DNA of 64,000 bases, from the NCBI GenBank assembly GCA_050084515.1, contig CM114271.1, positions 49,476,001-49,540,000 on the forward strand, in the 5' to 3' direction. The translations under genes were made by a program, and so were the position numbers. This DNA is from Blasia pusilla (lineage: Eukaryota). The notes beneath the pieces are model-generated. The model saw nothing but the letters and a program-made list of their open reading frames with translations. It ran no database searches and had not been told where the DNA came from. Below are positions 35,335 to 61,890 of the stretch, in pieces. How positions within the stretch are numbered: the stretch's first letter is position 1; every line of letters begins with the position of its first letter.

Positions 35335-36270
35335 GGCTGACTATCCATGTGAGACAGTTGAGGTCCATCGCCTGCCCCAACACCTGTCTCCGTGATGCCT
35401 CAGTCATCCCTGGCACCGCCGTAGTACCGGTAGTGAACCCCATGGCGCGCTCGCGCTCATCTGCTGTAGGCTCCTCCAATACTCCGGTCACCTCATCCCA
35501 AATCATACCTGGCCATACCTGACGAAAGGCATGGGATGCTGGGAAGCTCACCAACGTAGGTAAGGCTGCCCTCAACTCCCCCATCCTATTGGCCGTGGCC
35601 AATGGTGGTCTATCATCGCATGTCACCACCTGAGATTGACGCCCTGAGTCCAAAATAGCATCCACCGTGAGATGTGGTGCTCTCTGGACTCCACTGTAGG
35701 CTCGACTCAGTACCTCTCATGGTATCAGGTTCGTCCACCATAGTCGTGGACGATGGGCACGTGACCCAACTCTCGCTGCATCTAACAACACAGCCGGTCC
35801 CAACCAAGACCTCACCTGATGTACACTCGTCATCACACGTGCACGAGTATCTCCCAACAACGGCACGTTCTCCAAAATGTACGCTGGAGAACATATCTGA
35901 CTCTGCTGCAAGTGTCGTACTACTCGCAGCATCTCCCAAAACATCCCGACCTCGGATCCTGCAATCCAAATCCTCGGCCAGCTGACATGGCCATCCAGCA
36001 ATCACCAAATGAATGGTGCCAACTCTATCCAGATCATGCGCCCCCACCAACGATATGTCGGCGGGTAGCGTATGCTGGTATCCCCGTACTGCAGATACCG
36101 ACAACAACTCAGAATACCTGTGGACCAATCTCGCCACATGACGTAATGATACTCGCCGCGCGGTCTCATCTCTCTCCACATAAAGGTATTGGTGCACCCG
36201 TATGCCCGCCTGCAATACTGCAGCCAATCCGGTGCTAATCCCTCCAAAGAGATCTAACACCCTAACACCC
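35335..36270 (-). pseudogene. DNMT3-like methyltransferase domain of E2
   Basis: VRVLDLFGGISTG, YVERD, LVIAGWPCQ, YILENVP, AHRPRLWWTNL, ERERAMGF, RRQVLGQAMD. Confidence 0.92.
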
Positions 36271-39200
36271 TCCCCTGGGCATTGCCACACAACAAGTGTG
36301 GTATCTAGTGGGGTCATCGTCTCCACTCCAAGAGCCCGATCGCCACGTGACTCTCGCTGCTCTGGGATAAAAACATGACTCCACGCCGCCTCACGAGGTC
36401 GTCGGCACTCCTCTCCAGCTCTCAGTCGTACCCCATAATGGTGAAGAGGCATCGCTAACATGGGAAGAGACACCCGCCATGGCTGTCTCTCCGTGGGACT
36501 ATCCGCTCATTGGGACATCCTCCGCATGTGCGTTCCCCTCCAACAACTCTCTGGCCGGCTAACACTACTGTGAAAGCCGCCAACGTGTCCTGCACTCGCC
36601 TCGTGATCGACCATCTCGTCCGCCCCGCAAATCGCGGTAATCGACTCATCCGACCGTCACCGACCGCCATCTGGCCGATAAGCAACGGTCTCCTCCCAGA
36701 AGTCAGGATGAATCCTAGGGGATATAACACTTTGTACTCCCCACCAACACATCGTAAGACTCGGTGGAGTCGTAATCGCACGTGCGTACCATAGCACTAT
36801 CCGTCGATGCTCTGGCTGGACTCTAACAACAATCTCTGTCGAGTCATATCTTGAGTGGGTGATCGCCCCAATCGAGGTCTCAGATCTGGAAGGGACAAGG
36901 CTCAATGTCGGCCTTCCGTAACCCCGACGCTAAACACGCCGCCTTCCCTAACATCAAGGGTTGCGCTCCCGAATCAAGTAGGGCGCGCTGCGGGTGGTAT
37001 ACCGTCCCCGTCGGACTAACCAAGCGAAATACTCACTCGGTTATCCAAGTATCACTACTCAGGTGTCACCATCGCTCGCTCTATGGCGGTCGGTGGCATA
37101 TCTACCAACCGCGCCGCCGCGATGCCATGACTCGTGGGGAACGCCCCGAGCACCGGCTCTGAGGGCAAGTCCACCACCTCCTCAACTACCTCTCAACAAG
37201 AAGCAGTCATCTCTCCACGCTCACACAACGTGGCGGCCAACCGGAACACCTCAGCTGGTCCAACTCCCAACGTCGCCAACTCTATGGCGGAAAATAACGG
37301 AGTTTGGCTCACTCTAGTGGCCACCTCCAACACTATAGTCGACACTGACTCCACTTGAGCCGGCATAGGAGTTGTCACTCCAACTCCTCGTGACGTCGAC
37401 GTAGGTGCCTGAACGGTAGGCACCGCTGGTCGTCGAGGCACCATCGATGGTGTGTGTAGTGCCTCTGATAATGTGAACGACTGTGGAACCCTGGCCTGCC
37501 GCCCCTCGGTCCCCTCTGGTGGGTCAATCTCAACTCCACCTCTCGATGGCTCGGTGCCTCTCGCAGCACCCCGAGTCACCACTGCAGCTGCCTCAACCTG
37601 GGCTGCACTACACATGAATCCCATATTGGAGAGATCCTCACCCGGGTCAGGGTAAGAGGTAGAGACTGGAGTCACACTAGCTGCTCGCAGCTCTGTGCCT
37701 TCCCTAAGCTGCATCATCGTCATGGCAGCAATCCTCTGCTCCAACTGATCGATGCGTGAGAGAAGCGCCGGCTCTGGTGCTCCTGCTCCATCTCCTCTGG
37801 CTGGTGGTGGTCCTCTACCACCACGTCTAGGAAGAACTCCCCGACCTCCTCCAGGACGACCGCCCCCAGGCCCTCGGCCTACCTCTGGACGTGCCCCTCG
37901 GCAAAGGTCAAAACATCTATCCCTAGTGTGACCATATATGTGGCAATGGTCACACTGGTGCTGTGGTGGGGCCATCCTCTGTGGCTCCTGCGCAATCAGA
38001 GGCGCTGGTGGTCCTCTCCCATGCTGTGGGCAATCTCTCTGCCTATGGGCCCCTCCACACGTCCAACAAGACCACATCGGTCCCTGTTGGGCAACATATG
38101 TAGATGCGGGTCGTTGCCTCATAGGCTCACGGTACCCGCCCTGCTCTCTAGGCACACTGGCCCACTCCCGTGGTACTGGTGCCCGCTGTGGCACCGGTGG
38201 GGTCACCGCCGCTCGTGGACCCGTCGACTCTTGAGAAAATCCAGCGGTCACTACCTGCTCCTCACTCATGTTGAGCTCAATACGCTCAGACAACTCAAAG
38301 ACCACCTTCAATGTGGGCTTCGCTGTGTGAATCAGCACCGCATCTCGGACTCTCCTCCGTAGTTCTCGGTCCGAACCCGTACCAATCTTTGGACTGGATG
38401 CGCCTCGATCCTCCAAACGTAGCAATGATCAGCCTCCTCATGCGTGTGAATGCCTCTCTCGGACTCTCACCCGATCGTCGCTGAAAATCAGTAGACTCTT
38501 GACTTGTCGGTGCAGACGCCTGGTAGCTCTTCCCCAACTGTCGGAAGAACTCCACTGTGGGGATGAAGCTGGGTGGCCCTCTACCACCAGAGGTCTCTGC
38601 CACATTGCCTGTGTCACTATCCTCCTCTCCATCTAGTCTCCGGGCTGATGGTGTGGGTCTCTCTCCTCTCACAATCCCATCATATGCCTCGCGACCACTA
38701 GTGGACACATACCTTGTAGCCCAATACATCCCTCCAGGCATCGATCTCTACTGAATATAGTGATCAAAACTCCATGTAGTCATCCATCGGAGGACCCTCC
38801 AAGTGTTGGAACAACCCCTTCCATGCCATGAAAGGGTTGAACCGTGTCGGGGTCCGTATCTCCTAGAAGTCGCACCATGTATCGAACTCCTGGATGAAAT
38901 CATCTAAGTCGATGGTGCCCACTGCACCCGAGAAACGACGCATGCCCCGATGGCCCATGTCGTCCATCTCCTGCCAAGTACTACTATCTCTGTCTGCGAT
39001 CTCGTCACCAGACCCAGTGTCTAGTGATGACGATCCAGTCACGGATGGATGTCGAGGTAGCTCCTCACTTGTAACCCCTCGATATCTCACTCCACTCCGT
39101 GTCACACCACTACCACTGCTCGCACTACCCCGTTCTTCGGAACCCTGGAAGAACACCGTGATGACAAACCCTCTCTCACCTGCTCATGCACTCAGACTCA

Positions 39201-43429: not shown

Positions 43430-43809
43430 TGTCATGACCATACAGATTATGTCGTAGAATATAGTGTGCTAGTAGAGGCCATACCTTATGTAGGGCCGCA
43501 GTGTCTAGGTAGAGATGCGATTTCATACATAGGGTTGGGGTTACTCAATTGAGGGTGAGTTTTCCAGTAGGGCCCGCTCTTAGGTTGGAGGATATAAAGT
43601 GGAGTGCACTCAAAGAAGTGTCAGTTCTTTGAGTTGAGCCTGTTGCGTTGGGAGTTAGCCTTGGTAGTGAGTAGAGCTCTTGGCTATGGTGTTTCCCGCA
43701 AGCTTCGACCTAGATTCTCCCATCGTGGAGTGGGTTTGGCTTGATTGTATGTGATTCTATACGTGTTTTATGACAAAAGGTCTTTCCCGGATTTCACTCA
43801 AAGAACTGA
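43430..43809 (+). promoter_or_regulatory. E3 5' L segment: TATA (43593-43598), initiator-like TCAGTT (43621-43626), self-complementary PBS (43796-43809)
   Basis: TATAAA lies 30 nt upstream of the A in TCAGT. tcagttctttgagt (43621-43634) is the exact reverse complement of actcaaagaactga (43796-43809). Confidence 0.75.
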
Positions 43810-46800
43810 TGTAGATCGATGGTAGCTTCGGTTGTGGATCAGTAGGATCTGGTTAGGGCTAATTGTGTACTCAACTGTGGATATTCGTGGCTTGTGGCCT
43901 ATGTTGGAGGTGTGAATCTGGTGCGTGGTTGGTTGGGAAAGAAGCGCCTTGCTGAGAGCTTTCCAACGCGCTTTAGATCGCCGGATTTCGTCAAGGGAGT
44001 TGGAAGTTATCAAGGATTGAAGATTCTGGTTCGTGTTCGACGGTTTTCTGATGTGGAGAGCTTGGAGTGCGGAAGCTTTGTTGAAGTTCATCCAGATCGG
44101 GTGAGAGATTCTTGTTGCTACTTGTATTGTGATCTCATGTGAAGCTATCTGCTTGAGTGTGTGGAGCGTTGCGGATTTTTGCGTGCATGAAATTGGGCGG
44201 AAGCGCTGTCGGATTTGCGATTCTTGAGGTGTATGGACAGCAAGTTTGTCTGATTTTTAGCTCGGAGTACAGAGCTTGGTTGTAGCTAATTTTTTGTGGA
44301 GAGATAGCTATGGTGGTTAATTGAATTTTGGTTGAAACAGATTTGATTTTGGTCACGGATTTGTGAAGTAATTTTTTATCCAAATTTGGCTATGGTGGAC
44401 AGCGGATCGGAGGGGCTGGTTGGTTGGTGACTCGTTCATTGTTAGAGACGCCTATCCCATTGGGGACGCCCTGGTTGGGCCTCTCTCCATAGCAAAGCAT
44501 GGCAAACGGGGCGATAGGGGCATGTCTCGAGGCTTCGAGGCAACTCGTGGTAGCTCGGGGCGAGTGGGCGTGAGAGGCGGAGTAAGGAGCAAGGAGCAAG
44601 CAAGCAAGCTTGCTTGCTTGGGCGTGAGGCAGATTTTGCAGGATTTGTGATTTGAGTGTTGCATAACTGGTCACCCATCTTTGGGGTATTCTGCCTGGAG
44701 GACGCTTAACTACTGAGTTCTTAACTATGCCAGTGTACATACTGGTGTAGCTCATTTGGTGTTGTTCGGAGATGTGTTAGGCGCTTTATGCATCTCAAGT
44801 TTTTGGTTGATGTATCTCTAGCGCATAGTTAGGTGTAACCTTTTCATGCAGGTGATATTTTCAGGTGCTGCGAGTCCGACTAGCACGTCATCGACCCGCG
44901 GCGGAGTAGCTTTTGCGTTAGAATTGTGTGGTGGGTTTTGTAGATTCAAGGGGCGCCACGTTTGGTGGATTGTGTTACCTTGATTTCCATTTGCGATTGG
45001 AGGATTGTCGTTGGACTTCCTGTGTTTGGATCCCCTCCATCGTTGCTTCTTGCTTGCGCGCCCATTGTTAGGGTTGACGCTGATTTCCAGAGTAGTGTTA
45101 CTCCTGTGTGCTACCGGTAGTGAGGCTGGAGTGATGACCAATAGACCGTGGGAGGATTCTTGTGGTGATGACAGGTTAGGAGTGTTGCAGCTCCATTGAT
45201 TTGGGACATGGACGGGATATATGGGGCCATGAAGGGCCCACGACGATACTCGGGTGTAGTGGGCACCATTGAGTTGGAGGACTTCATGCAGGAGTTTGAT
45301 ACGTGGTGTGATATGCAGATGTTGCGGAACGCCACGTTGTTTACACCCTTCTTGGCTTGGAAGGGGTTGTTTTAGCACTTGGAGGGACCACCCATGGATG
45401 ATTACCATGAGTTTAGGAAGGACCACGTTGCTGAGATTGAGGCATGGAGACAATATTGGTCTCCAGGCTATGTGTCTATCACCCATGGTGGTATTGGTAG
45501 TAGTGCTCCTACTATGCCAGCCAGCCCGACGTTGAGTGGTACGAGTACGAGTCGGAGTGGGGGTATCAGTGGAGGTACCAGTGGAGGTACTAGTGGAGGT
45601 ACTAGTGCCCCACCATCGTTTAGCCCGGTTGCCGAGTTCTTCAAGAGGTTGAAGAAGAACTATCAGGGAGTGAAGACAGAGAAGTTGAGGAGTCTTCAAG
45701 AATTTGAGCGAAAGACTGGTGAGAGTCTTCGTGAGGCATACACTCGTATCCGACGCTTGATTTGATTACCCAGTGTGGACCGAGGCTCACGCATGATCGA
45801 TTTTGGTATGGGATCTTGGGCAGAGAGTTGCGCGCAGGTACGTGATGCTACTCTTATGAGTGATGATTCACCCACATTGACCCATGTGTTTGCTCTATTT
45901 GAGAAGATTGAGCTTAACATGGTGAAGGAGAGAGTGGTGACATCCGCATTCAAGAGGGGATACAACTACTACTTCGTGTTCAAAGCAGCCCACATCACAG
46001 TCTCGTAGTAGTGGTGGTGGTAGTAGTAGTGGGAGTCGTGGGGGTACACACGACCTCGATCAGTCCTAGAGGGACACTTGCGCAGAGACCATTGCCTTCA
46101 TTTGCTGCCCCCCAGCAAGGGGATCATGTTGGACATGTGGAGGTGATCATGTTAGGAAGTTTTGTCCCCAAGAGGATGGAAGACGGACTTTGGAGGATGG
46201 GCCTCGATCGGCCCCAACTCGGTGTGATCATTGCGGGAGACCAGGTCATCCTCGAGCGTTGCTTTGATCTTCATCCAAAGTTGAGATCAGGCCGCGGCCG
46301 TGGTGGAGTAGCTCCGAGAGGCCGAGGTGGTAGGGGTGGTAGAGGTGGATCAGTGGTTGGAGAGCCTACGTTGGCCATCCCTACCACTACGACAAGTCAA
46401 CTATGGTGTCGAGGATTGAGCGATTGGAGAGGTTGGCTACTATGGTGATATCTAGCATAGATCAGGTTCGGGAGCAGGGCTTCCACCTCTTATGGAGGGA
46501 TGATCTCTCTTATATGGCGAGTGCAAAAAGACAAGGTTGAGGCATCAAGCTGCGATACGAGAGGAGCCACTCGAGCGTCAGAGCCACGTGGTGCTACTGT
46601 GGAGTTGGACCCATAGAGAGGTGAGGCTGGGAGGCAGGCTAGGCTTCCCGAGTCATTCTTATTGTCTGAGGTGCTTAGGACTCCATCCATGGTTCCTACG
46701 CAGCCTATTGAGCCGACATTGGGGACTGAGGCATCTACATCGCGTCTAGTAGACACGGATCGACTTCAGTGCAAAGATGTGCGGATGGCAACTTCAGTGT

Positions 46801-47849
46801 TGGGATCCCCATTGTTTTCGGCCACGGAGTTGATGGCTTTAGGAGTTGACTTAGCTCATGTATTTCAGCTAGCAGCCAGGTTGTGTGAACATGGGGGTGT
46901 TAGTGCTACACGTGCTGAGGTGGATGAGGGTGTTGCAGTGGAGCGACCCTCTATGTCAAGTGTAGCATTGAGTACCAGTGCTACTTGGCAGGTAGCAGCG
47001 GCAAAGATGGATGCATTACCAACCCGGCCAGCCATTGATCGTGAGAGGCTTACACCTGGTGTATGTATGTTGGACAACCGGAGTGGAATATTCCGATTGG
47101 TGAGTCCTACAGGAAAGGTGTATAGACCAGATAGAGTCTTGTTAGACTCTGGTGCCCAACCTTTGACGTTGGGAAAGGCGTCATGTATTGGTTTGGGTAT
47201 TCGAAGGTCAGAGCTTGAGCCTTGCCCATTCCAGATTCAAACATCATTTGGAGGAGCCAATGATAGGTCTCAATTCATGACACGGGAGAAGTTTTCTGTA
47301 CAGTTGAGACCAGATCATGCGACTCATAGCTCCCGGTTGGGAGTACCTGCAGTGGTCACATCAGCCGAGTCGTATGATGTACTAGTTGGAGGAGCAGTAT
47401 TGTACCCGATGGGTTTTCAGATGGATTACTAAACTGAGACAGCGTCTTATAGACCTGGTTGGCAGTCTGGGGATGGACGTATGAGCCAAGTTCCTGTGAG
47501 ATTTATTTATGGGGCTCGACCAGGAGGGTCTTTCCCAACGGTATTAGCATCTGTGGCTGGTTTTAGTGGAGTAGTCACTTGGCCATGAGACTTTTGGGAG
47601 GGTAATGTTTCCGCTATGGATTCTCCTGTGCATGAGGAGGTAGAGGAGGTCCCTATTTTTGCAGCAATGGCATCCTCATCGTTGGATGTGCCACTTTGGA
47701 GTTCAGGAGGTGCACTACGGCAGGAGGCTTGGTGTGAGGCTGTTATACCTCACGAGGAAGAGGACGCCCCATGGCGGACTCCTACTTCTGGTCCAGTTGG
47801 GTTATCCCCTTTGGATACTACACCCATTGTATGGCAGTATGCGTCGGAG

Positions 47850-48790
47850 GGCATTTGTGTGTTAGATCTCTTTGGTGGGATTAGCAGTGGTTTGGCTGCA
47901 ATGTTGCAGACCAGTATTCTTGTGCGGAGATACGTGTATGTGGAGCGGGATGAGACGGCCCAGAGAGTCTCATCCCGACATATTGGTCAGTTGATGCGGA
48001 GATATCCTGAGTTGTTGCCGCCATCAGCTATTCGTGGGTACCGACGTGCTTTGTCCTCACACATTGCATTGTTGGGGGCGCAGGACCTTGAGAAGGTTGG
48101 TCCTGTGGATTTGGTGATTGCTGGATGGCCATGTCAGGGTCATACACGTGCTGGTCGTGGTGAGGGATTACATGACCCTAGGTCTCGATTGTTTTGGGAG
48201 ATGTTACGGGTGTTACGACATCTTCAGGTTCATCAGGCACGTGCTCCAGCTTACATTCTGGAGAATGTTCCATTGTTGGATGACACTCGGACCCGGATGA
48301 TGGCGAGTGTTCATGAGGTGCGGTCTTGGATTGGACCAGCGGTGTTATTGGATGCAGCGCGAGTTGGCTCGCGTGCACATTGTCCACGCTTGTGGTGGAC
48401 AAACTTGTTGCCTAAGGAGGTTCTACGTCGAGTGCAGCGGGATCCTTGCCTTACAATGGATAGTATCTTGGATACTAGGCGACTTTCTCAAGTGGTGAGG
48501 GTTATTGATCGGTCACCCATGGCAGTGGTGAACCGTGTGGGCCAGCCTAGGATGGCACTACCCACATTTGTGAGTTTTCCCTCGTCACATGCATACAGGG
48601 AAGGTGGTCCGGGCTTGTATGGGATTCTCATGTGCGAAAATTGGTGGAGCCTAACGCTGATGAGAGAGAGCGTGCGATGGGATTTGCTACTAGTGTGACA
48701 GCAGTTGCTTCCATTTCTGAGGCTTCACGACGTCATGTGTTGGGTCAGGCCATGGACCTGAATTGTTTGACTTGGATTTTGAGTCTTGGT
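47850..48790 (+). pseudogene. DNMT3-like C5 cytosine methyltransferase domain of E3 (best-preserved copy)
   Basis: ICVLDLFGGISSG (I), YVERD (II), DLVIAGWPCQG (IV, catalytic Cys), GLHDPRSRLFWE, YILENVP (VI), DAARVGSRAHCPRLWWTNL (VIII), ERERAMGF (IX), SEASRRHVLGQAMD (X). One frameshift near 48620. Confidence 0.95.
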
Positions 48791-51656
48791 ATGGCCGAGC
48801 AGCGTCGACTTCGGACTATGTGTGTGGGTCTTCCACCCCTTGTAATGAGCTTGATGGCTACCGGGACGATAGAGGCATCGGCTGGGGGCGAGGAGAGTAG
48901 TATTTTGCATCCTTAGAGTAAATGGGATGTAATGGCTGGGCATGTGGAGTTGGTTGCTCATGCTGGTGGAGGAGTTATTTGCTCAGATGATGGTGTAGCT
49001 AAGGGTGTACCATTTTGTGAGGGGGTTGCGTAGCAGCCAATGGCATCGTCCTCTCCCTCTAGTGTGCCAGTGAAGGAGACTTGGGAGCCATTTCTTGGGC
49101 CCAAGCTTACGGGAGGTGAGAAACGACGCTTGACACAGTTCCTACGTGCTTATAGGAGTTGTTTTGCCTTTAGCATGAAGGAGTTGGGTTCTCTGGTTGG
49201 ACCTAGTATACGGATTGATTTGGCTAGTCATACGCCAATCTTCCGTCGTCCCTACCGATATAGCGATATGGAGAGGGACCTGATTCAGAGTAGGACGTTG
49301 GACCTTTTGGAGGCTGGATTAGTGGAGTTATCGCATGGAGAGTATGCATCAGCCACTGTCATGCCTGCTAAAAAGGATATGCATGGCAACTACACGGATA
49401 GGCGGATGTGTGGAGATTACCATCCTATCAATCGGCAAACCAAGGCCGATAGGTATGCCATGCCTACATCTGAGGAGATCTTTGATGTGGTGGAACATGC
49501 AAAGATTTTCAGTACTTTGGATCTTCGGGCATGATACCATCAATTGCCGATTCGGGAGAATGACAAGGCCAAGACAGCATTTTGGGGTGTCAACTCTCAT
49601 GGCAAGGATTTTTTGTACCAGTGGAAATTCTTACCCTTTGGGTTGAAGAATGCACTTGCCGAGTTTCAGAGAGTGATGGACAGGATCCTAGCAGGATTGG
49701 ATTTTGTTTGGTGTTACATTGATGATATCTTGGTGTTGATAACACGGTGGAGGAGCATCGAGATACATTTGCAGATGGTGTTTGAGCGGTTGAAAGCTCA
49801 TGGTCTATGTTTGCATCCAGGAAAGTGTAAGTTCTTCCATGAGGATGTTGAGTACTTGGGTCATGTGATCTATCCAAGTGGTTTGGGAGTTCAGAAAGCA
49901 AAGGTGGAGACTATTGCACTTATTCCGCGTCCGGTAGATGTGAGTAGAGTTCGAGCATTCATGGGATTGGCGAACTACTATCAGAGGTATGTGAAGGGAT
50001 TTAGTGCTATGGCAAAGCCTTTGAACCAATTGCTGAAATCAGATCAAGAGTGGTATTGGGGAGATGATCAGGAGAGAGCTTTTGTGGAGCTTAAGGCCAA
50101 GTTGGTGGCGGCGCCTATCTTGAGGAGACCTATCAGAGGGCGCCCATTTCAGTTACACACTAATTGGAGTAGGTTGGGACTTGGAGCGGTGTTGACACAA
50201 CATGATGATGAGCACATGGAGTTTGTGGTGGCCTATCCAAGTCGTTCGAATAATGCAGGATAGTCGCGCTATAGTTCATATGAGGGAGAGTGCTTGGCAG
50301 TAGTGTGGGATGTGGCACACTTTAGGTGTTACTTGTTTGGCACACAGTTTACCCTTGTTACTAATCACCAGCCGCTCAAGTGGTTGATGGAGTCTGACAA
50401 GCTTACAGGGAAGCTTGCACGGTGGGCTCTTATCTTACAGAAGTATGACTTCCATGTGGTACATAGACCTGGAGTTGCCAACCTTGATGTTGATGGGTTG
50501 AGTAGGAACCCATGTACTAGCCAAGAGGATACAACTGGGGCTAGATGGCATGGCGAGGTTGATGAGGAGATGGTGCCAGGTTGGCATGCATCCGCCTTTT
50601 TATGTTGGTTAGGGATGGACTCTAGTATGGAGGACCACATGATATCTTACTCTAGTCAGAGGGTAGATGGCCAGCCTTCAGATCCTAAGGTTGGAGATGG
50701 TGGTACGGATCAGCGTGATATTCATGATGATGCGTTGGTATTGGAGTTCCTACGGACCAGTAGGGTGCCAGGCATAGTGAGTGCCAAGGAGCGAGACCGT
50801 ATTCTTCAACGTGCTAAGAGGTATCGATTGGAGGGAACACATATTCTCTGTGTGTGGGAGGATGGTAGAGTATGAGTAGTGCCGCATTTGGCTCAGAGAG
50901 AGCGCATTGTGCGACATGCCCATGAGGAGTTGGGACATTTTGGGGTAAAGCGTACGTATAGCTTACTCCTTGGTCAGTATTGGTGGCGTGGCATGCATAC
51001 TCAAGTGCAGCAGTTGGTGTCATGTTGTATGGTTTGTGACCGGGTGAGGGCATCATTCAATGCCCCTACACCACAGTTACACCCCTTGCCTATTATGGGG
51101 TTGGGTTACCGTTGGAGTGTGGACTTTGCGGGACCGTTACCGTTGACTGTACGACATGATCGATATGTTTTGGTGATGGTGGATCACTTCTCCAAGTGGA
51201 TTGAGTTGGTGGCATTACCTGACAAGGCAAGTGAGGGAACGGCGTATGCGTTTCTTGACAGAGTGCTTAGTCATTTTGGTGCACGGTGAAGTCTTGACCG
51301 ACCAATGTCTGAGTTTTGGTGAGTTTTGGTCTTGTGTGACAAGGCGTTGATTGATCATCGGACCACATCTCGAGATCATCCGAGGCGGATGGTTTGGCTG
51401 AGCGTGTGGTTCGGGAGCGGTGAAGAGGGCATTGCGCAAGTATGGCCTCTGAAGGGCATCTTGAGACCAGGATATTCAGTTGCCATGGTTAGCCATGGGG
51501 TATAGGTTCAGTCGCCAAGTATCCTTGGCTTCCTTCTCACCTTATTTTTTGTTATACTGCCGAGATCCAAACTTGCCAGCAACAATTCATTGGGAGTCTA
51601 GTGAGGTGGTGAATCTTGATGACCCAGAGATGTGGATGAGAGTGTGTTCTCAGCGG

Positions 51657-52932
51657 TGTCGTATAGTAAAATCAACTAGTGTGTAAACTCCTTCGTCATT
51701 AAGTGTTAGATAGAGTTTCATTAGTATTAAGTAAATTGGCTTAGAAAAAGGAGATTCTTATGTTTAAACCTCTTTATGGTGCCTCTTTTATGCGGGCCCA
51801 ACTTTAGGAAAAGGAGGTAATAAATAAAATATGACTTTATAAAAGTAAAGTAGTTGCTTTAATGAAAAGCAAAAGTAGTCTTGGTTGGTGGCTAGGTTAG
51901 TTGGGGTAATTTGGAAAATATCATGTGGGTAAAAGAGGATATTTTGGAAGAGATAAGAGGAAATCTACTTGTGTCAAAATGTGATTGGCTAAGCCTTGAG
52001 AGGAAGCCATGTGGCACAAGATAAGATAAGCTTTATTTCGTACTCTTGTGGATCCCTTGTGAGTATATAAAGAGGAGGGACCTTCAAGGGTTCATCACTT
52101 TCTATTCCACATCTTGAGTCTCTCGTGTCTCTCTTGAGTGTATGGCTTTGGGATTGCTTGCTTTTCCAATGAGAGTGGATCACCCCTCTTGGGAGAGTAA
52201 CTTGATCATGGTCTATTCTTCGAGAGGTTTCTAGAGTGTGGTGTATGTGTGTGGGGGGGATGAGAGGTTTGTCACCGTAGAGGAGTTTAGTCATACTAAA
52301 ATAGCGGATGTTTTGGCTTGTTACTTTCCCAATGAGAGTGGATTACCCCTCTTGGGAGAATAATTCCGCCAAAACCCATTCTTGAGGAGAGTAGAGAATG
52401 TCTGTCAAGCATGGATAGGGGTGGAGCACGAGCTATGCCCGACTTTCCTTTCCTCAATCCTTACCATGTCAAGGTACTCTTTGTAGATAGGCACTGGTTC
52501 ACTCGCTATTTAGTTTATCACTTTGGGGAGGCGTTCATGAACCAGGTCATGCAATCTCCAACTCCGGTGATTCTTCCTATCGTCACATATGGAAGGACAT
52601 GGGATTGTACTTTGTATGTCCTTATATAGCAATCCATGGATGTCAATAGGTCTGGTCAAGTAGGGTTTAACACTAGTTGTGCTATCTTCCTCGTGTACAA
52701 ACGTAAAATAGTTTATAGGGATTTTATAGTTAGGAATTTCGGGGTCCGATGTTACGAAGAAGTGATCGCCTCGGCACTTCCATTTGTGATACCTGTCGTG
52801 AGAGAATGGAGAGTGTACATCATAATTTTGTATTGAAAAAGGAGAACTTATTAGAGAGTTCACCTTGCATCGACCGCATCTACCGCAGCTAGAAGGCCCA
52901 CCCTTGCTCGAAGAAAGATTCTCGACGCGACA
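51657..52932 (+). mobile_element. 1276-bp solo-LTR-like insertion of a different family inside the E3 integrase
   Basis: TGTC...GACA ends. It interrupts the codons CSQR|AEL, leaving gcgg/acgg (4-bp TSD, 1 mismatch). TATATAAA at ~52064. Internal repeat ccaatgagagtggat.acccctcttgggaga at ~52166 and ~52329. No recognisable coding content. Confidence 0.85.
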
Positions 52933-53290
52933 ACGGGCAGAGCTCTTTCGGAGAGTTATGCCAACAGCCTTTGAGAATCTTGCCATTGCTCAACACAGGG
53001 ATACGTTGCGGTATGCAACCATTCGGGGTGGAGGTTATCGACCATCGATTCGTAGGTTCCATGTGGGGGACTATGTCTATTTGCAGCAGATTTCACCGAC
53101 AACGTTGGATGTGACGGCATGTCGCACTATTTTACAAGTGCGCGAGGTGTTAGCTTCTGGAGTTCTCATGTTGGAGGGTCGTGATGGAGTTGTTTGGAAG
53201 GACTATGTGCGTAATTATGCGCCATGTCATCCTCCAAATGTGGATGGTACTGTTGACCCAAGCTTAGCCATGATACGTGCTAGCTTGAGG

Positions 53291-53428
53291 TGCATGTTGT
53301 GTGGGTCTGCTGGTAACGCAGCCCATATGTTGGTGTGTGATCGGTGTTCTAGGGGTTGGCACATGATGTGTTTGACTCCACGTATGGATGTTGTTCCTAT
53401 TGGAAGGTGGGTTTGTCCCCGATGTACT
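53291..53428 (+). other. PHD finger at the integrase C-terminus of E3
   Basis: CMLCGSAGNAAHMLVCDRCSRGWHMMCLTPRMDVVPIGRWVCPRC. Confidence 0.93.
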
Positions 53429-53603
53429 TAGGAGAGGTAGATGACTTGATCTTTGCATGATATGGATTACAGATGTGCGACTAACGATGGGGCAACCTAG
53501 CACCTGGCCTTTCTGATTCGTGCACCCAAGAAGGTGTATAGCATATAGTAGATGTATAGGGCTACCTAGGAGTTAGAGGGACCTAACCGCCAGTTAGGGG
53601 GGC

Positions 53604-54160
53604 GAGTTGTGGAACACTTGTGTTTGTGGATGCTCTCGTCTATGTTATGTATGTATGTGAGTATGGTATGTCAGCGATGTATGTTGTATGACGATGTGGA
53701 TTTGCACGACAGCTGTCATGACCATACGGATTATGTCGTAGAGTATAGTGTGCTAGTAGAGGCCATACCTTATGTAGGGCCGCAGTCTCTAGGTAGAGAT
53801 GCGATTTCATACATAGGGTTGGGGTTACTCACTTGAGGGTGAGTTTTCTAGTAGGGCCCGCTCTTAGGTTGGAGGATATAAGGTGGAGTGCACTCAAAGA
53901 AGAGTCAGTTCTTTGAGTTGAGCCTATTGCGTTGGGAGTTAGCCTTGGTAGTGAGTAGAGCTCTTGGCTATGGTGTTTCCCGCAAGCTTCGACCTAGATT
54001 CTCCCATCGTGGAGTGGGTTTGGCTCGATTGTATATGATTCTATACGTGTTTTATGACAGTAGGTCTTTCACGGATTTTAGTTGTGGTACACTTGTGTTT
54101 GTGGATGCTCTCGTCTATGTTATGTATGTATGTTGTATGACGATGTGGATTCGCACGACA
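53604..54160 (+). repeat. E3 3' terminal block S1-gc-L2-S2
   Basis: S1 53604-53711, junction cacgaca-gc-tgtcatg, L2 53714-54078 matches L1, S2 54079-54160 carries a short internal deletion between tgtatgt repeats. Confidence 0.95.
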
Positions 54161-54369
54161 TGTACCCTCACAATCGCATTCCTCCCTTCATGTCTCTCTT
54201 TCTATAAATTCTTTTGTGGATGTTTTTGTCTCCATAGATACTTGAACTTGATAAGTGAGAATATATTTTGCCACTAGATAACCCTGATAATTTAAGGTAT
54301 TTTGGTTATCTAGGTTAGCATATTGATCTTTCTTGTTCATAGTGAGTGTTTCAACTTTGTCATTGGAGC

Positions 54370-55133
54370 ATTCAAGGAAAATATTTGGTGTCAGCAACAG
54401 CCGCCAGGGCTTATTTGTTGGGCATGTGATGGAGCCCATCATCAACAAGAGTGCATCCATCACGATAGTGGATGCATGTTGCAGCACGGAGGAGATGAGT
54501 CTGCATCAAGAGTTTACCAATGTGACCATTGTCAAAGGTTTGGTCATACACGCGCTAAGTGTTTTAGCCTTCACCTTGAGTTGCGTCCGGACCGAGGGCC
54601 AAAGAGGGAACCAAAGCGAGTTTTCGGTTCAGTTAGGCCTAGAGGTCATGCACCAAGTGGTCTTGTTGGTCTTGTTGGAGAACGAAGAGTTGGATTTGCC
54701 CAAAAGGCGATGGAACTGAATTGTTTGACATGGATCATCAACTTAGAAGTAGTTGAGCAACGTCGGATGAGATTGCGAAAGGTTGCAACTGTTGCATTGG
54801 TGAGCCCCATGCCTATCGAGATGGTTGAGGAGTGGCCAAAGGTCAGATCTGAGGTGATCGACATACCAGAGGAGATCGGGAGAGACACCCTTGGATGTCT
54901 TGGGATATTTTTGCACGTACGCCGAGAGATGATAGCTACAACATCGAGCGTGGTTCCAGGTATTGCACGTAGAGGAGATGAGATTTTGGAGTTGGCTGCA
55001 TGGGAGCAGCGCAGTTTTTTTGTCCGAGATGAGATTGCACCATAGCAACCACTGATACCCGCACCTGAGAGTCTTACCGTAGTCACGATGGAGAGCTGGG
55101 AGCCAGACATTGGCAAGAGGAGAGCATCGCCAG
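54370..55133 (+). mobile_element. E6 left part: older internally deleted family member (Gag zinc knuckles fused to the post-DNMT linker), target of the E4 insertion
   Basis: ORF 54323-55045 has CWACDGAHHQQEC and CDHCQRFGHTRAKC, then jumps to AMELNCLTWII (the end of DNMT motif X). The sequence resumes after E4 at 62667. Confidence 0.85.
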
Positions 55134-55989
55134 TGTCACGACTGTTAGGATAGATCGGTGGGATCTAGCAGAACGTCTGCACGAGTAGTGGAGGACATGC
55201 CCAAGAGGTCAAGGATGACCTGTTGAGGCCCCAGGAAACCATTTCGGCTCATTTGGAGCCATATAGAGAAACTTGCTATTTCAGGTAAGTTTCCATGTTA
55301 GAGATAGTTGACTTTCTACTTTGGGAAGTGGCCCTTGATCCGCTATAGTAGGTCAAGAGCCAAGGAGGTGACCTGCGAGAATAGGTTACCGTTGAGAGGG
55401 CTTGGGAGAGGGAAGGGGATATACCTCAAGGAGAGAGAGCTTGAGAGCTCATTCTCTCTTTGTTGAACCTCTTGGCATAAGGCGGCGGAGCTATGGTCCC
55501 TTGCCTTGTGAGTGTAACCCAAGCCTCTCATTAGGAGAGTGGGTTTGATTTGACATGAGAGAGAGTGCACACCTTTGAGAGCTATGGTGTGAGATGGTGT
55601 AGAGAGAGATTGGATCTAACTTTACAAAGAGAGAATGAGATAATGAGAGAGCTTCATGGGGGAACTCGTTGGTCACTCGTTGTTTTTGTAGGTTGGGGAC
55701 CGTGTTCCCCATTCAGCTGCTCATGGGAGTGCTCACCAGAGCAAGGGCTGCTTTGATTGTTCTTTGCATTTGCCGATTTTTCCGTGTGTAAGAGTAGCGC
55801 GGAAGCGCTCCCCAATTTCTCATAGGGATTGATTATGGGGATAGGTTGCCCCATGCCGGTGCTCTCTGGAGCACCATGAAGCTTGCTGATTTGTATTTTT
55901 ATAGGTTTTACATTTTCATTGGGAGAAACCAGCGCGGAAGCGCTGCCAAATTTTGTGTAGGAGAAAGAGACATTGGGCTTTACGATCGC

Positions 55990-58900
55990 CTAGCAATGGC
56001 AGTTTTGCTTGGTTGCCCAGATGGAGGTCGCCACAGTTATGACGCATGGAGCAGCCACAGAGTTGGATCCAGAGTGAGGGGAAGCCAGAAAACATACTAG
56101 GCTTCCTCAATCTTTCACGTTGTCGAAGCGACGAGGACCCCATCGATGGGTCCTCATCAAAGTCCCTGGAGAGTTGGTGATGTTGTTGGTGTGCAGGCAC
56201 GGAGGGCAATGGGAGAAGTGAGTGTAACGACTCCTATTGTTGATGCTCAAGAGGGGCATGTGTCGAGCACCTTATTGGGGGCGGCCACCGTTGTGTACCA
56301 CACTCCTTTATTTTCTGCTTTCCGATGTTATGACGTTGGGGGGTACGCCCGCCGAGGCTTTTCGGCTGGCCGCTTCACTATGTGAGCGCGGAGTTGGAGT
56401 TCCTGCATCACGTTCAGAGGTGATTGCAGAGGAGGTGATGGACTTGCCCTTGGAGCGGATGCTTGGGCCGTCCACGTCAGATTCATGGCAAGCTATGGTA
56501 GCTAGGATGGCGGAGATGCCTGCTAGACCCGCGATAGAGCGTGCCATGGCTTCTCCTGGTGTTGTGTTGCTCGATAAGCAAGGAGAGGTCTTCCAGTTGG
56601 TGAGTCCCTTAGATAGAGCTTTTAGTCCGCAACACGTCTTTTTGGATTCAGGAGCGCAACCCCTGATGTTGGGGAAAGCGTCATTCAGAGGATTGGGCTT
56701 GACGAGAGCCGATGTGGAGCGTTTTCCATTCCGGATATAGACATCCTTGGGTGGAGCGAGTACCACATAATATATCACCCAACATGAGGTCGTGATGAGG
56801 ATTCGCTTGGGACATCCTATAGATGAGTCCGTGATGCGAGCCAAGGCGATAGTGACTGATGCAGAGTCCTACAACGTCTTGGTTGGTGGAGCAGTGTTAT
56901 ATCCGATGGGGTTTTCCCTGGATTACGGGGAGGAGTCAGCATCCTACAGACCAGGATGGCACTCAGGTGATGGGCGCCTTAGCTCATTACCCGTTCGATT
57001 CACAGGTGCAGTGATCGAGCGACGAGTAGGAGAGGTGGCGACCTTATCAGCATTTAGCAGTGCCATCACTTGGCCTAGTAATTTGATTGAGGGACATGTC
57101 CATGCAGAGGATACTCCTGTTCCTGACATTTCTATGGAGAGGAGTGTTATGGTAGTCGCATCATTCCATGGAAGAGAGATGTCATTGTGGGGCTCGATTG
57201 AGGAGCTTCGACGATTGGCAGATGAGCACGTGCAAACCACGTGGAGCGAGGCGTTTGCACCGGAGCATGATGGGTCTGAGGAACCCGAGGTAGCAGGGAG
57301 TGCTACGATAACACCCTTGGATACCACACCCACTGTGTGGTGTATCGCGGAGGAGGGTATTCGAGTGTTAGATCTCTTTGGAGGGATTAGCACTGGGTTA
57401 GCTATTGTTTTGCAGGCAGGAGTGCTAGTGCAGCTGTACCTGTATGTGGAGAGTGATGATGTTGCGAGGCGCGTCTCACTATGACATGTGGTGCAGTTAC
57501 GCCTATGTTTTCCCAACTTATTGTGTGCGTCCGCGATACAGGGGTACCAGAGTTCCCTACTGAGGGATATTTCGTTTTTGGGGGCGCAGGACTTAGAGCG
57601 GGTAGGGACCATTGATTTGGTCATTTCCGGTTGGCCATGTGAGGGTCAATCGAGTGTTGGACAAGGCAGCGGGTTGGCTGACACTCGGTCCAGGTTTATT
57701 TGGGAGATGTTGAGGGTCTCACGGCAGTTACAAGAGCACCAATCTCGTTCTCCAGCCTACATTCTGGAGAATGTGCCGATCTTAGGAGACTCCATGTCAT
57801 GGATGGTGACAAGTCTTCATTAGGTGCGTGCCTAGATCGGCCTAGCAGTGTTCTTGGATGCATCAAGTGTAGGTTCTAGAGCCCATCACCCACGTCTATG
57901 ATGGACCATTTTGGTGCCCCATGCGGTGTTACGGAGGGCGTATGCGAGAGTGGAGCGCCCATCCCATTTGTTAGTGGATTCCATTGTGGATCCAGGTTGT
58001 CAATCACAGGCAGTGAGGCACGATGATCGACCACCGTTGACTGTGGTCAACAGGGTAGGCAGGCCGCAGGCAGCCTTGCCCATATTTGTGAGTTTTCTTG
58101 CTTCCTATGCATACAAGGAGGCCGGTCTTGGCTTGGTTTGGGATGACTAGGTTCAGCGGTTGGTGGAGCCCAACGCCGACAAGAGAGAGCGAGCGATGGG
58201 ATTTCCCACAGGAGTGATGGCAGTATCGTCAGTGTTAGAGGCATCACAACGACATGTCTTGGGTCAGGCGATGGGACGTGAATTGCTTGACATGGATCCT
58301 CATCTTGGGAGTGGATGAGCAGCGTCGTATGACATCGCGTCAGATCATAGCGGTTGCGTTGGTGAGCCCCATGCCTACCAAGACGGTGGAGCCAGTGGCT
58401 GGGGGCGAGACCCGAGGAGATCTACACACTATGGGAGATTGGGAGAGACATCCTTGGACTTCTTGGGATGTTTTGCAGGTACGCCAAGAGATGATAGCCA
58501 CAGCATCGAGTGTGGTTCCGGGCACTGCATATAGAGGACATCAGAGTTTGCAGTTGGCTGCAAGAGAGCGGCCGAGTGTAGTTGTTCGAGACGAGGTTGC
58601 ACCATAGCAACCATCGATACCCGCGCCGGAGAGTCCTACCGTAGTCACAATGGAGACTTGGGAGCCAGATATGGGCCCTAAGTTGACAGGAGGAGAGCCG
58701 CGCCGGATACATCAATTCCTCATGAGTTAAAGGAGTTGCTTTGCATTTAGCATGGAGGATGTGGGTACGCTGAAGGGACCGGGGATCCGCATTGAGTTGT
58801 CGAGTGATACGCCGATCTTTCGACGACCCTACAGGTACAGTGATTTGGAGAGCGCTCTGATTCAGAGTAGGAGCCAGGACTTGGTCAGAGCAGGACTAGT

Positions 58901-61701
58901 GGAGATGTCGCATGGGGAGTATGCATCTACTACTTTCATGCCCGCCAAGAAGGATGTGCATGTCAACTGGACGGATAGGATGTGGGGATTACCAACCTAT
59001 CAATCGGCAGACGAAGTCCAATAGGTATGCCATGCCCACCCCTGAGGAGATCTTTGATGCAATTGGTCACGCAAAGGTCTTCAGTTCATTGGATTTGCGA
59101 GCCGGATACCATCAGACTGCCTATAAGAATAGAGGACAGGCTAAAGCCCGCATTTTGGGGCATCGATCCTTCGGAAGGATTGTTTGCACCAGTGGCGGTT
59201 CTTACCATTTGGATTCAAGAACGCTCGGCTGAGTTTCAAAGGGTGATGGATAGGATCTAGGCTCGTGTGGATTTTGCTAGGTGTTATATTGATGACATCG
59301 TAGTCTTTAGCACCAAGGTTGAGGAGCATGAGCGACATCTAGAGGAGGTATTTCGACAATTGCAATTGCATGGGCTAAAGCTACATCCAGGCAAGTGCAA
59401 GTTCTTCTACGACCAGATTGATTACTTGGATCATACGATATACCTAGGGGGCCTTGGTGTTCAGCAGACGAAGGTAGAGGCTATCTCACGCATTCCACGC
59501 CCTATAGATGTGAGCCGTATTCGCGCATTAATGGGATTGGCAACTTCTATCGGCGGTACGTCAAGGGATTCAGTTCGATTGCAAAGCCGCTAACCTTGCT
59601 GACCAAGGTGGATCATGAGTGGCACTGGAGGGATGAGCAGGAGCAAGCATTTCACTTGCTCAAGGACAGGTTGACGTCCGCGCCCATCTTGAGGAGACCG
59701 ATCAGGGGGCGTCCTTTCCAGTTGCACACAGATTGGAGCATGTTGGGGCTTGGAGAGGTGCTCACCCAGCATGATGATGAGGGTAGAGAGTTCGTGGTGG
59801 CTTATGCTAGCCGCTCAAACAACACTAGAGAGGCGAAGTACAATTCGTATGAGGGTGAGTGCTTGGCCACAGTGTGGGTTTCACGCATTTCAGGTGTTAC
59901 TTATTCGACAACCCCTTTACCATCATCATTGATCATCAACCACTGAAGTGGTTGATGGAGTCCGACAAGCTTACAAGGAAGCTTGCGAGATAGGCTCTGT
60001 TGTTGCAGGAGTATGATTTTTAGGTGGTACATAGACTTGGGATGCTCAATGAGGATGCGGATGGGTTGAGTCGTAACCCATACCCGAGTCAGCAAGATGC
60101 GTCTAGAGCTCAATGGCATGGAGAGAGTGATGAGGAGTCAGTGCCAGGATGGCACGCATCAGCCTATTTAGGCATGTTGGCTATGGAGAGCCAGAGTGTG
60201 GACACTTTGATGGCGAGGTCTAGTAGAGAGTGCTTGGATCGCGAGGCCAGTGAGCAAATGACAGGTGGCCAAGATATTCATGATGATGGAGTAGTCTTGG
60301 AGTACCTTCGTACTGGCAGCGTTGCAAGCACCGTGGGTGCTAGAGAGCGGGATCGGATCCTACATCGGGCCAGACGGTTCCGTTGGGAGGAGACACATAT
60401 TTTGAGGGTTTGTGAGGATGGTAGAGTACGCGTAGTGCCACATCCTTCATAGAGAGCACAACTAGTGCAGCATGCCCACAAGGAGTTGGGTCACTTTGGG
60501 GTGAACTGGACGTATGGCTTGCTCCAGATTCAGTATTGGTGGCGAGGCATGCAGACTGACGTTCAGCAGTTTGTTGCCAGGTGCATGGTGTATGATTGGG
60601 TCCAAGCATCATTCAATTATCCGACTCCACAGTTGCATCCATTACCGATCATGGGCTTAGGGTATAGATGAAGTTTGGATTTTGCAGGACCTTTGCCTTT
60701 GACGTAGCGTCACAGTCGTTATGTGTTGGTGATGGTCAAGCACTTCTCGAAGTGGATCGAGTTGGTTGCATTGCCTGAAAAAGCAAGTGAGGGAGTAGCT
60801 TATGCCTTCCTTGATAGAGTGCTAAGTCATTATGGCGCACCAGTTGAGGTGTTGATAGACCAGGGTACCAAGTTTCGCCCTGTGTGATCAGGCGCTGATT
60901 GACCACCGCACGACTTCGCGAGATCATCCCGAGCCGGATGGATTAGCGGAGAGAGTTGTGCAGACGGTGAAGAGGGGTTTATGCAAGTATGGCTTGCAGA
61001 GAGGTCACCTAGGAGATTGGGACCTCCAGTTGCCGTGGTTGGCGATGGGATACAGATTCACCAGATAGGCATCCTTAGCGTCTTTTTCACCGTACTTGCT
61101 ACTTTATGGTCGAGAGCCAGATTTACTTATGGCCATTCGTCGAAATATTGGTGAGGTGTTGGATCTTGATGACCCAAATATATGGATTCCAGCAGGTTCT
61201 TAGAGGGCTGAGTTTTTTTGGAGAGTGATGCCCATTGCGTTTAAGAACTTGGCGATTGCGCAGCATCGAGATATGTTGAGGTATGCGACTATTCGGGGTG
61301 GTGGTTATCGACCAACTATTTGGAGGTTTCATTAGGGAGATTATTTCTACTTGCAGTAGACTGCACCGACGACCTTGGATGTGAATGCAGGGCGCACTAT
61401 CTTGAGAGTGCGTGACGTTTTGCCATCCGATGTTCTCTTGCTGGAGAGATGCGAAGGTATGGTATGGAAAGACCATGTGCATAATTGTACGCCATGTCAC
61501 CTTCCTAACATTGATGGTACAATAGATCCAAGCTCAGCAATAGTTCTTGCAGGCTTGCGTTGTATGTTGTGTGGTTCTGCTCATGGTGCGGCCACGATGC
61601 TAGTCTGTGATGGATGTTCGAGAGGTTGACATATGGCATGTCTGACGCCACCTCTCACTAGGGTTCCTCAGAGACGATGGATGTGTCCAAGATGTACATA
61701 G
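55990..61701 (+). pseudogene. E4 pol polyprotein (PR-DNMT-RT-RH-IN-PHD) with many premature stops
   Basis: 56237- (FLDSGAQP), 56792- (IRVLDLFGG), 57488- (ISGWPCEG; YILENVP) and 57911- are all in one frame. RT 58752-59593 (YIDD), RNase H 59596-, integrase 60465-61500, PHD 61561-61698. Confidence 0.93.
57355..58305 (+). pseudogene. DNMT3-like methyltransferase domain of E4
   Basis: IRVLDLFGGISTG, YVESD, DLVISGWPCEG, YILENVP, AHHPRL*WT, ERERAMGF, RHVLGQAM. Confidence 0.9.
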
Positions 61702-61890
61702 AGGAGATACTAGGTAGGTTTCGATTTCGACTTTTTCTGTGACATCGATGGTAGGAAGAAGACTAAGGATGGGGCCACATGAGCACCTGACCTTTCTGCT
61801 CTTAGCGTCCTAGAGATGTATGTCGCGCTAGGTAGGGATAGATGGCTATCTGGAGTTAGACGGACCTAACCACCAGCTAGGGGGGGGGGC

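Follow-up and report, generated by a model that had tools for sequence, protein, structure and literature searches.

Dead copies of Gypsy-type retrotransposons with a DNMT3-like methyltransferase in the bryophyte Blasia pusilla

Introduction

Why a retrotransposon should carry a cytosine methyltransferase of its own is the question raised by a 64,000-nucleotide stretch of the genome of the bryophyte Blasia pusilla (GenBank assembly GCA_050084515.1, contig CM114271.1, positions 49,476,001 to 49,540,000 of the forward strand; hereafter the window). The window holds four degraded Ty3/gypsy-type elements (A, B, C and D) and a remnant (F/E), and an earlier note, made from the letters of the window alone, had claimed that the four carry a DNMT3-like C5-methyltransferase (DNMT) domain between protease and reverse transcriptase (RT). 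The kind of element is already published and the idea is not new, as KnitGypsy-Dnmt3 of Klebsormidium nitens is a long terminal repeat (LTR) element of the Gypsy type with an unrearranged Dnmt3-like domain in its polyprotein (de Mendoza et al. 2018, Nat Commun 9:1341). Apparently new here are the occurrence in a land plant, a wider distribution and several points of anatomy: a leaky-type stop, an integrase ending in a PHD finger, and split repeats that are permuted and flanked by target duplications. We consider it likely that the elements of the window are dead copies of old green-lineage Gypsy-DNMT3 retrotransposons, which encode Gag, protease and DNMT ahead of a leaky-type UAG and RT, RNase H, integrase and a PHD finger behind it, and whose enzyme would methylate the element's own complementary DNA (cDNA).

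Results

A methyltransferase domain shared by four decayed elements

In copy C, Pfam recovered PF00145, RVT_1, RT_RNaseH, Integrase_H2C2, rve and PHD in this order, and the elements show the Ty3/gypsy succession of Gag CCHC knuckle, protease, RT, RNase H and integrase (H2C2 and DDE core). The protease-region open reading frame (ORF) of C matched no Pfam family; in the relatives P0140, P0206 and P0336 the equivalent place is occupied by Asp_protease_2. Searches by tblastn with pieces of C found the same domain series in A, B and D, with the PHD finger present in all four copies. Comparison of the window with itself placed A and C in one family (~92% identity over 6.6 kb), with B and D each ~66-75% identical to A/C; D and the remnant F/E form a second family and B a third, in keeping with the three subfamilies of the earlier note.

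The methyltransferase domain lies after the protease and before the RT in every copy. A frame of 369 amino acids at 47589-48698 (plus strand) matches PF00145 (E 5.9e-10, 39.5 bits, cut-off 22), and tblastn with a Marchantia domain as query recovered the domain at all four places where it had been claimed (Table 1). A fifth remnant, 23 amino acids of the C-terminal end, lies at 54704-54772. In C, motifs I (DLFGGIS, 47865), IV (GWPCQG, 48123), VI (ILENVP, 48255), VIII (AHCPRLWWTNL, 48375), IX (ERERAMGF, 48662) and X (LGQAMDLN, 48740) follow one another in the canonical, unrearranged order, and with all ten-motif landmarks in place the claimed C5-methyltransferase domain spanning motifs I to X is borne out. 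Neither PWWP nor ADD was found by Pfam in the element frames scanned.

Each copy is damaged within this domain: in C there are one frameshift near 48611-48617 and an R-to-C substitution within motif VIII; A lacks motif VIII altogether and is interrupted by four in-frame stops; the frame of B shifts directly after PCQ and meets one stop; and D, with PCEG at motif IV, contains five in-frame stops. The RT of C (PF00078) begins at ~49034, 3' of the DNMT, and the stretch from RT to integrase contains in-frame stops at 49532-49534, 50261-50263 and 50873-50875. All four copies are pseudogenes, and the window copies make no enzyme.

Affinity of the domain to DNMT3

A search of solved structures with the single sequence gave 53 rows, of which the leading 29 were DNMT3A, DNMT3B or DNMT3C (E 1.2e-8 to 4.4e-6), followed by HaeIII (1.7e-4) and DRM2 (5.5e-4). 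A profile of seven relatives matched DNMT3B (7.4e-18), DNMT3A (1.5e-17) and DNMT3C (2.7e-17), with weaker matches to tobacco DRM (8.5e-12), HaeIII (2.7e-8), HhaI (6.5e-7) and DNMT2 (8.5e-6 or worse), and found no DNMT1 or chromomethylase chain at E ≤ 1 among these structures. An AlphaFold model of the relative P0003, which is 81% identical to copy C in the domain alignment, reached a mean predicted local distance difference test score (pLDDT) of 91.7 on 33 sequences, and all of the top 50 Foldseek rows for this model were DNMT3A/B/C (E 2.7e-18; template modelling (TM) score by target 0.82-0.85). The Protein Atlas returned only generic PF00145 clusters, mostly of phage origin. By best match in sequence, profile and modelled fold, the domain is DNMT3-like.

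The likeness to host DNMT3 (animal DNMT3A/3B/3C and plant DNMT3) includes the usual order of motifs I to X and the DNMT3-type motifs to which the earlier note had pointed (AHRxRxxWxNL and ExERxxGF). For example, AHRARYFWGNL of DNMT3A aligns with AHCPRLWWTNL of copy C in motif VIII, and ELERIFGF...RQKLLG of DNMT3B aligns with ERERAMGF...RRELLG in motifs IX-X (ERxxGF...RxxLLG). In contrast to host DNMT3, the element domain is part of a retrotransposon polyprotein, shares only ~20-22% identity with the host catalytic domains and, in alignments and in the model of P0003, is ~85 residues longer than DNMT3A/B between motifs VIII and IX. DRM2, from the second-best family in the profile search, also has a DNMT3-related catalytic domain, but DRM motifs are rearranged whereas those of the element are not, and the alignment with the C-terminal part of DRM is confined to the I-IV half.

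Selection on the domain

Ratios of nonsynonymous to synonymous substitution (dN/dS) were computed codon by codon between copies by the method of Nei and Gojobori (NG86), skipping breaks. Between subfamilies, the rough ratios were 0.14-0.20 for the DNMT (326-333 codons), 0.20-0.24 for the RT (233-238 codons) and 0.06-0.09 for RNase H and integrase (115-135 codons), the DNMT having proportions of nonsynonymous (pN) and synonymous (pS) differences of 0.21-0.32 and 0.67-0.70. The DNMT values are far from 1, the value that the earlier note had named as telling against its reading. Between A and C the ratios (DNMT 0.59, RT 1.0) say little about selection, as they reflect post-insertion decay and out-of-frame stretches. 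KnitGypsy-Dnmt3 is likewise under purifying selection, with Ka/Ks <0.2 (de Mendoza 2018).

Residue conservation was counted in 185 database domains covering at least 270 of 349 profile positions, 130 of 315 matching proteins being too short and therefore excluded. Of the 185, 184 retain the catalytic Cys and 183 the motif VI Glu; of the two arginines of motif VIII, one is present in 180 and the other in 182. The Pro before the catalytic Cys is Glu (EC) in 81/185 relatives, while the clade of the window elements has PC; EC for PC in motif IV is unusual among DNA C5-methyltransferases. Judged by these counts, the catalytic residues of the methyltransferase are held by selection lineage-wide. Low dN/dS between subfamilies, together with 462 representative clusters matched at E ≤ 1e-30 (see below), indicates that the element inherited the domain from its ancestors and kept it under selection, and did not acquire it in a one-off capture, as the earlier note had proposed an ancestral domain.

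Relatives in the green lineage

A word-indexed protein search returned 110 proteins of similar length and 26 longer ones, the latter comprising 15 from Marchantia polymorpha, one from Calypogeia fissa, one from Sphagnum fallax and nine without organism name; named shorter relatives belong to Sphagnum species, Marchantia, Calypogeia and Riccia. Marchantia polymorpha relatives with apparently intact frames for Gag, protease and DNMT are annotated as hypothetical proteins (for example, Mp_4g09160). An exhaustive profile search matched 13307 representatives at E ≤ 1e-3, 2561 at 1e-10 and 462 at 1e-30. The best 150 representatives (all 6e-64 or better) all belong to the transposon family, and many are 1000-3456 amino acids long. 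The names recovered for 30 of the relatives include Klebsormidium nitens GAQ93235.1 (P0206), Closterium spp., Sphagnum jensenii, S. troendelagicum and the 'pol' of Scenedesmus sp. PABB004.

Two layouts were found among the best 150 representatives, both confirmed by Pfam on example proteins. In 82 the DNMT lies between RNase H (or RT) and integrase, and 47 of these 82 have a PHD finger after the integrase; in 11 it follows the protease or precedes the RT, as in the window; and 57 contain the DNMT alone. K. nitens GAQ93235.1 has the order CCHC, protease, DNMT. A FastTree phylogeny of 189 domains (185 from the database and the four from the window, in which X bridges each break) contains a clade of 73 rows (support 99) that unites the four window rows, K. 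nitens P0206, Closterium and all 27 protease-DNMT rows, and holds none of the 90 rows of the RNase H-DNMT-integrase layout. On this tree the two DNMT positions need one change. Within the 73-row clade, the window rows fall in a clade of 30 (support 100) with named members from Marchantia, Calypogeia and Sphagnum.

The large sister clade (P0139, P0152, P0155, P0160, P0184 and others) includes the Scenedesmus 'pol' (KAF8056149.1) and many metagenome proteins. Its DNMT is of the same family (E down to 1e-96 against the profile) and is accompanied by a Gypsy-type RT, RNase H, integrase and usually a C-terminal PHD finger as in the window elements, but lies between RNase H and integrase rather than between protease and RT. 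The catalytic Cys is present in 90/90 sister-clade rows, and EC replaces PC in motif IV in 52/90.

Since they share a clade and the CCHC-protease-DNMT order with K. nitens GAQ93235.1, the window elements are, on sequence grounds, members of the published streptophyte Gypsy-DNMT3 lineage. The algal precedent cited in the earlier note is correct, and the elements belong to that very lineage. KnitGypsy-Dnmt3 resembles them in the position of the DNMT after the protease, the DNMT clade, the DIRS-like split repeats of A, C and D, and the dN/dS found here; it differs in that the host of the window is a bryophyte, and the distribution found here is far wider. De Mendoza (2018) placed relatives from K. 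nitens in a divergent Dnmt3 clade and the acquisition 'in the K. nitens lineage'. A distribution spanning a chlorophyte, Closterium, Klebsormidium, liverworts and mosses argues for a much older capture. Subsequent literature lists DNMT3 in retrotransposons 'in streptophytes and dinoflagellates' (2025 survey, PMC12344493) and 'streptophytes (Gypsy-DNMT3)' (2026 preprint from the group of de Mendoza, 10.64898/2026.05.21.726589). A literature search confined to articles outside subscription journals, supplements aside, found no report for bryophytes or other land plants, nor of the RNase H-DNMT-integrase layout in green algae, and the running text of de Mendoza (2018) mentions neither Marchantia, Sphagnum nor a PHD finger. 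The UAG-CAR-CCA stop, the PHD-integrase, the 4-bp duplications and the A...B-2nt-A-B repeat arrangement are likewise features of the window elements absent from that main text, though its figures or supplements may hold them.

A conserved stop between methyltransferase and reverse transcriptase

The sequence TAG-CAR-CCA occurs at a homologous spot between DNMT and RT in four of the five copies (C, D, B on the minus strand, and F; Table 1). Reading on from motif X, C gives ...EGVA* QP... and D gives ...DEVAP* QP..., with the TAG at the same aligned place and the RT continuing in the same frame after it in both. A second stop in C, at 48914-48916, looks like decay, as relatives read W there. The whole window contains five exact matches to TAG-CAR-CCA against ~1 expected by hand arithmetic; the figure from a shuffling scan (33 found, 23.9 expected) counts sites with up to one mismatch and does not apply to exact matches. 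The ORFs of the relatives P0321, P0325 and P0117 and of Marchantia P0111 and P0113 end at the same residue.

In tobacco mosaic virus, readthrough of the UAG stop needs the six-base signal CAR-YYA behind it (PMC2754532). The stop of the elements shares the sequence features of this type, namely a UAG with CAR-YYA, conservation, and an open coding frame downstream. It suggests that readthrough would produce the RT, RNase H, integrase and PHD finger. The earlier note had placed the domain in the pol frame; its position between protease and RT stands, but with a conserved UAG before the RT the DNMT is instead the C-terminal part of a predicted Gag-protease-DNMT product.

Permuted split repeats and target duplications

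Elements A, C and D have a single repeat (A1) at the 5' end and the series B1, two nucleotides, A2 and B2 at the 3' end, so that the element is bounded not by two identical LTRs but by A alone at the 5' end and B-A-B at the 3' end. Likeness between the copies of the B repeat is 99% in A and 91% in D, and a G-run (AGGGGGG or longer) stands directly before B1 in all three elements. Elements start with TGTCA and end with ACGACA (TG...CA ends), and are flanked by target duplications of TGTA in C (43426-43429 and 54161-54164) and CCAG in D (55130-55133 and 62663-62666); the flanks of A read ATAT and ATGT (three of four positions alike). Such an integrated element corresponds to a normal (B-A)...(B-A) element that has been circularly permuted, and the inner B1-NN-A2 junction reads CA-NN-TG, resembling a joint of both element ends. 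The repeats of KnitGypsy-Dnmt3 have been described as 'the same as that of a DIRS retrotransposon' (de Mendoza 2018, Fig. 4c legend).

For element B, no direct terminal repeats were found between 30000-32000 and 38800-43400. The strongly divergent termini claimed for the subfamilies therefore hold for A/C versus D only. An inverted match of 107 bp (78.5%; 31738-31840 with 41716-41822) brackets B and may be due to chance or to a different end structure.

Transcription of the family

Reads from three RNA-seq runs of the host species, placed on 44000-62000 at 90% likeness (7093, 7109 and 7873 reads), cover the whole of C and D in all three runs. In bins within the DNMT, reads with a minus-strand first mate reach a depth of 35-60, versus 0-4 for those with a plus-strand first mate (for example, 35-50 versus 0.02-1.25 in bin 47606-48206), which for usual stranded libraries means sense transcripts of the element. 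Depth falls to ~1-2 in the unique flank bin 54217-54817. The element family is still transcribed in the host species.

In all three runs reads join 51653 to 52934, skipping the 1.28-kb piece of C; this confirms the private insertion that the comparison of the window with itself had shown. The piece itself has an RNA depth of 60-117 and is on that account taken for a transcribed repeat of another kind. Reads also join 50678 to 52959 in the three runs (16, 31 and 47 reads), with nine extra letters between in the two for which they are listed; as the join ends in CA..TA it is no intron, and probably stems from transcription of a family member with a deletion.

Other features of the window

The remnant F/E is split by element D, which is inserted within its RT: F/E breaks at 55133 and resumes at 62663, with CCAG on both sides. 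An internal deletion fuses gag to the final part of the DNMT (54704-54772). A further fragment at 18211-22787 has D-like terminal repeats (18211-18663 and 19087-19919) and gag (21305-22787), and is followed by a tandem array of a 178-bp unit (22795-23813). On the coding strand of every element copy, G exceeds C by 21-25%, while the difference is ~0 between elements (1-7900, 20000-31000). The element copies have a CpG observed/expected ratio of 0.63-0.79, with TpG and CpA in excess. A possible host exon of cytochrome b561 type lies at 27991-28380 (minus strand; Pfam E 0.09 only); it had no protein match at E ≤ 0.001 among 268 candidates, and no other hint of a host gene was found among eight ORFs outside the elements.

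Table 1 Features of the retrotransposon copies in the window (position 1 is the first letter of the window)
Element	Feature	Position	Strand	Remarks
C	full length, 10.7 kb	43430..54160	+	ends TGTCATGACC...GCACGACA
C	5' repeat A1, 365 bp	43430..43794	+	96% identical to A2
C	gag, CCHC-knuckle remnants	45208..46907	+	broken across three frames; tblastn with Marchantia P0111 residues 1-560
C	aspartic protease region	46908..47762	+	LLDSGA at 47139-47156
C	DNMT3-like C5-methyltransferase, motifs I to X	47802..48805	+	Pfam, structure-sequence search, tblastn
C	in-frame stop, readthrough-type context	49031..49039	+	TAG CAG CCA; between DNMT and RT
C	RT (PF00078), RNase H (PF17917/PF17919), integrase zinc finger and core (PF17921, PF00665)	49034..51289	+	
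C	private 1.28-kb insertion, integrase region	51652..52934	+	not shared by A, B or the transcribed relatives
C	PHD finger (PF00628)	53291..53425	+	C-terminal end of integrase protein
C	3' end	53596..54160	+	
C	G-run AGGGGGG	53596-53602	+	
C	repeat B1	53606-53715	+	
C	repeat A2	53716-54078	+	
C	repeat B2	54080-54160	+	
A	element	7987..17867	-	family of C
A	repeat A1	17867-17503	-	
A	gag	15737-14050	-	
A	protease	13949-13227	-	
A	DNMT	13133-12129	-	
A	RT	11895-10625	-	
A	RNase H	10621-10020	-	
A	integrase	10016-9609	-	
A	PHD region	9235-8746	-	
A	repeat B1	8571-8464	-	
A	repeat A2	8462-8095	-	
A	repeat B2	8094-7987	-	
B	element, coding part only	31953..38967	-	
B	gag	38967-37202	-	
B	protease	37513-36724	-	
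B	DNMT	36329-35315	-	
B	conserved stop	35078-35070	-	TAGCAACCA
B	RT	35050-33859	-	
B	RNase H	33849-33252	-	
B	integrase	33248-32828	-	
B	PHD region	32453-31956	-	
D	element, without gag	55134..62662	+	
D	repeat A1	55134-55624	+	
D	protease	56312-57262	+	
D	DNMT	57290-58273	+	to 58427 when listed as a part of the whole element
D	conserved stop	58605-58613	+	TAGCAACCA
D	RT	58623-59826	+	
D	RNase H	59886-60428	+	
D	integrase	60432-60839	+	
D	PHD region	61204-61698	+	
D	repeat B1	61892-62019	+	
D	repeat A2	62022-62534	+	
D	repeat B2	62535-62662	+	
F/E	left half: gag CCHC fragment joined to last part of DNMT	54314..55133	+	TAGCAACCA at 55043-55051
F/E	right half: RT and start of RNase H	62663..64000	+	runs past window end

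Discussion

The sequence shows an element whose first reading frame holds Gag (CCHC), aspartic protease and a DNMT3-like cytosine-C5 methyltransferase and ends at UAG-CAR-CCA, with RT, RNase H, DDE integrase and PHD finger behind it in the same frame. The conserved stop, its tobacco mosaic virus-like context and the ORFs of relatives ending there point to readthrough as the probable source of this second part. As readthrough would be needed for everything from the RT to the PHD finger, the DNMT would be made alongside Gag, at levels above those of RT and integrase, and would be available inside the particle. There it may methylate the freshly made DNA copy of the element, either ahead of integration or during it, and self-methylation of cDNA is probably the role of the enzyme. 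The earlier note had also proposed that the protease would release the enzyme within the particle. The PHD finger, in turn, could tie the integrase to the state of the histone H3 tail. Its best matches among solved structures are KMT2C/D, CHD4, DPF2/3, ATXR5 and KDM5. PHD fingers in retrotransposons are known (PMC6673714), and chromoviruses similarly fuse a reader of histone tails to the C-terminal end of the integrase, although the reader there is a chromodomain.

Several points weigh against this account. Readthrough is read from the context of the stop, copy A is mutated at the site and has no TAG-CAR-CCA, and a deeper subclade (P0140, P0284 and P0289) has one uninterrupted ORF. Canonical LTR reverse transcription gives no A...B-A-B product. 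The domain tree is a FastTree phylogeny without an outgroup, the solved structures that give DNMT3 as the best match are a set without DNMT4, DNMT5 and DNMT6, and synonymous divergence between subfamilies is saturated (dS 1.7-2.1), which makes the dN/dS ratios rough, though far from 1. Reads at least 99% alike to the window number only 188, 294 and 212 per run, so the transcripts come mostly from other copies of the family. Finally, in the only published assay of a Gypsy-DNMT3 domain, that of K. nitens gave no methylation when expressed in yeast; human DNMT3B also failed there, and the authors call the result inconclusive (de Mendoza 2018).

The yeast experiment is also an argument for supposing that the domain is kept for another job, either as a depositor of 5-methylcytosine on genomic RNA or the tRNA primer, as in DNMT2, or as an S-adenosylmethionine-dependent or DNA-binding module that steers packaging or integration. 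Such a role would suit a domain that belongs to the Gag-protease product, which handles RNA, and the extra length of ~85 residues between motifs VIII and IX and the replacement of the motif IV Pro in 81/185 relatives fit it as well. However, the best matches are to DNMT3-type DNA methyltransferases, with DNMT2 worse by 12 orders of magnitude, the DNA-contacting arginines of motif VIII are nearly invariant, and the yeast result is inconclusive on its authors' own terms, for which reasons we regard another job as unlikely. It is more improbable still that host chromatin is the main target of the enzyme, which would then act in trans rather than on its own cDNA, in the neighbourhood of insertions or at other loci, blunting harm to the host or disturbing silencing. 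Effects on the host epigenome and on insertion sites were raised as possibilities by de Mendoza (2018, Discussion), the PHD finger on the integrase can be taken as the element reading chromatin, and an enzyme made at the level of Gag could be abundant; yet the methylome of K. nitens is ordinary and plant-like despite such elements (de Mendoza 2018).

There is hardly any room left for the idea that fragments of a host DNMT3 were captured once, or that an assembly chimera placed them in elements to which they are foreign. The domain occupies the same position in four copies from three subfamilies with 66-68% nucleotide identity, the same architecture recurs in proteins of Marchantia, Sphagnum, Calypogeia, Closterium and Klebsormidium, dN/dS stays far below 1, and the stretch is present in DNA runs of several studies; a one-off capture or chimera is ruled out by these observations.

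Self-methylation of cDNA was also proposed for SymbioDIRS-Dnmt3 of Symbiodinium, which shares with the window elements a retrotransposon-borne Dnmt3-type enzyme and split, DIRS-type repeats but is a DIRS element, judged unrelated to the Gypsy elements, whose enzyme methylated CG in yeast (de Mendoza 2018). The Gypsy-type elements described here have a DDE integrase. DIRS elements use a tyrosine recombinase. Circular forms opened by the integrase at the internal CA-NN-TG junction would explain the permuted A...B-A-B ends. More speculatively, such opening by a DDE integrase may belong to a wider picture, in which an ancient Gypsy superfamily of the whole green lineage carries an 'epigenetic kit' of DNMT3-like enzyme and PHD-integrase, with Gypsy-DNMT3 as one branch, is still transcribed in land plants, and uses a Gag-level enzyme set by a leaky stop to methylate cDNA in the particle; as a whole, we hold this picture to be possible rather than probable.

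The function of retrotransposon-borne cytosine methyltransferases has been open since 2018. The bryophyte relatives extend the range of Gypsy-DNMT3 into land plants, though not to tracheophytes, and the leaky-stop design and permuted ends yield mechanistic predictions that can be checked. As Marchantia is a genetically tractable land plant, the purpose of the enzyme becomes testable in a model.

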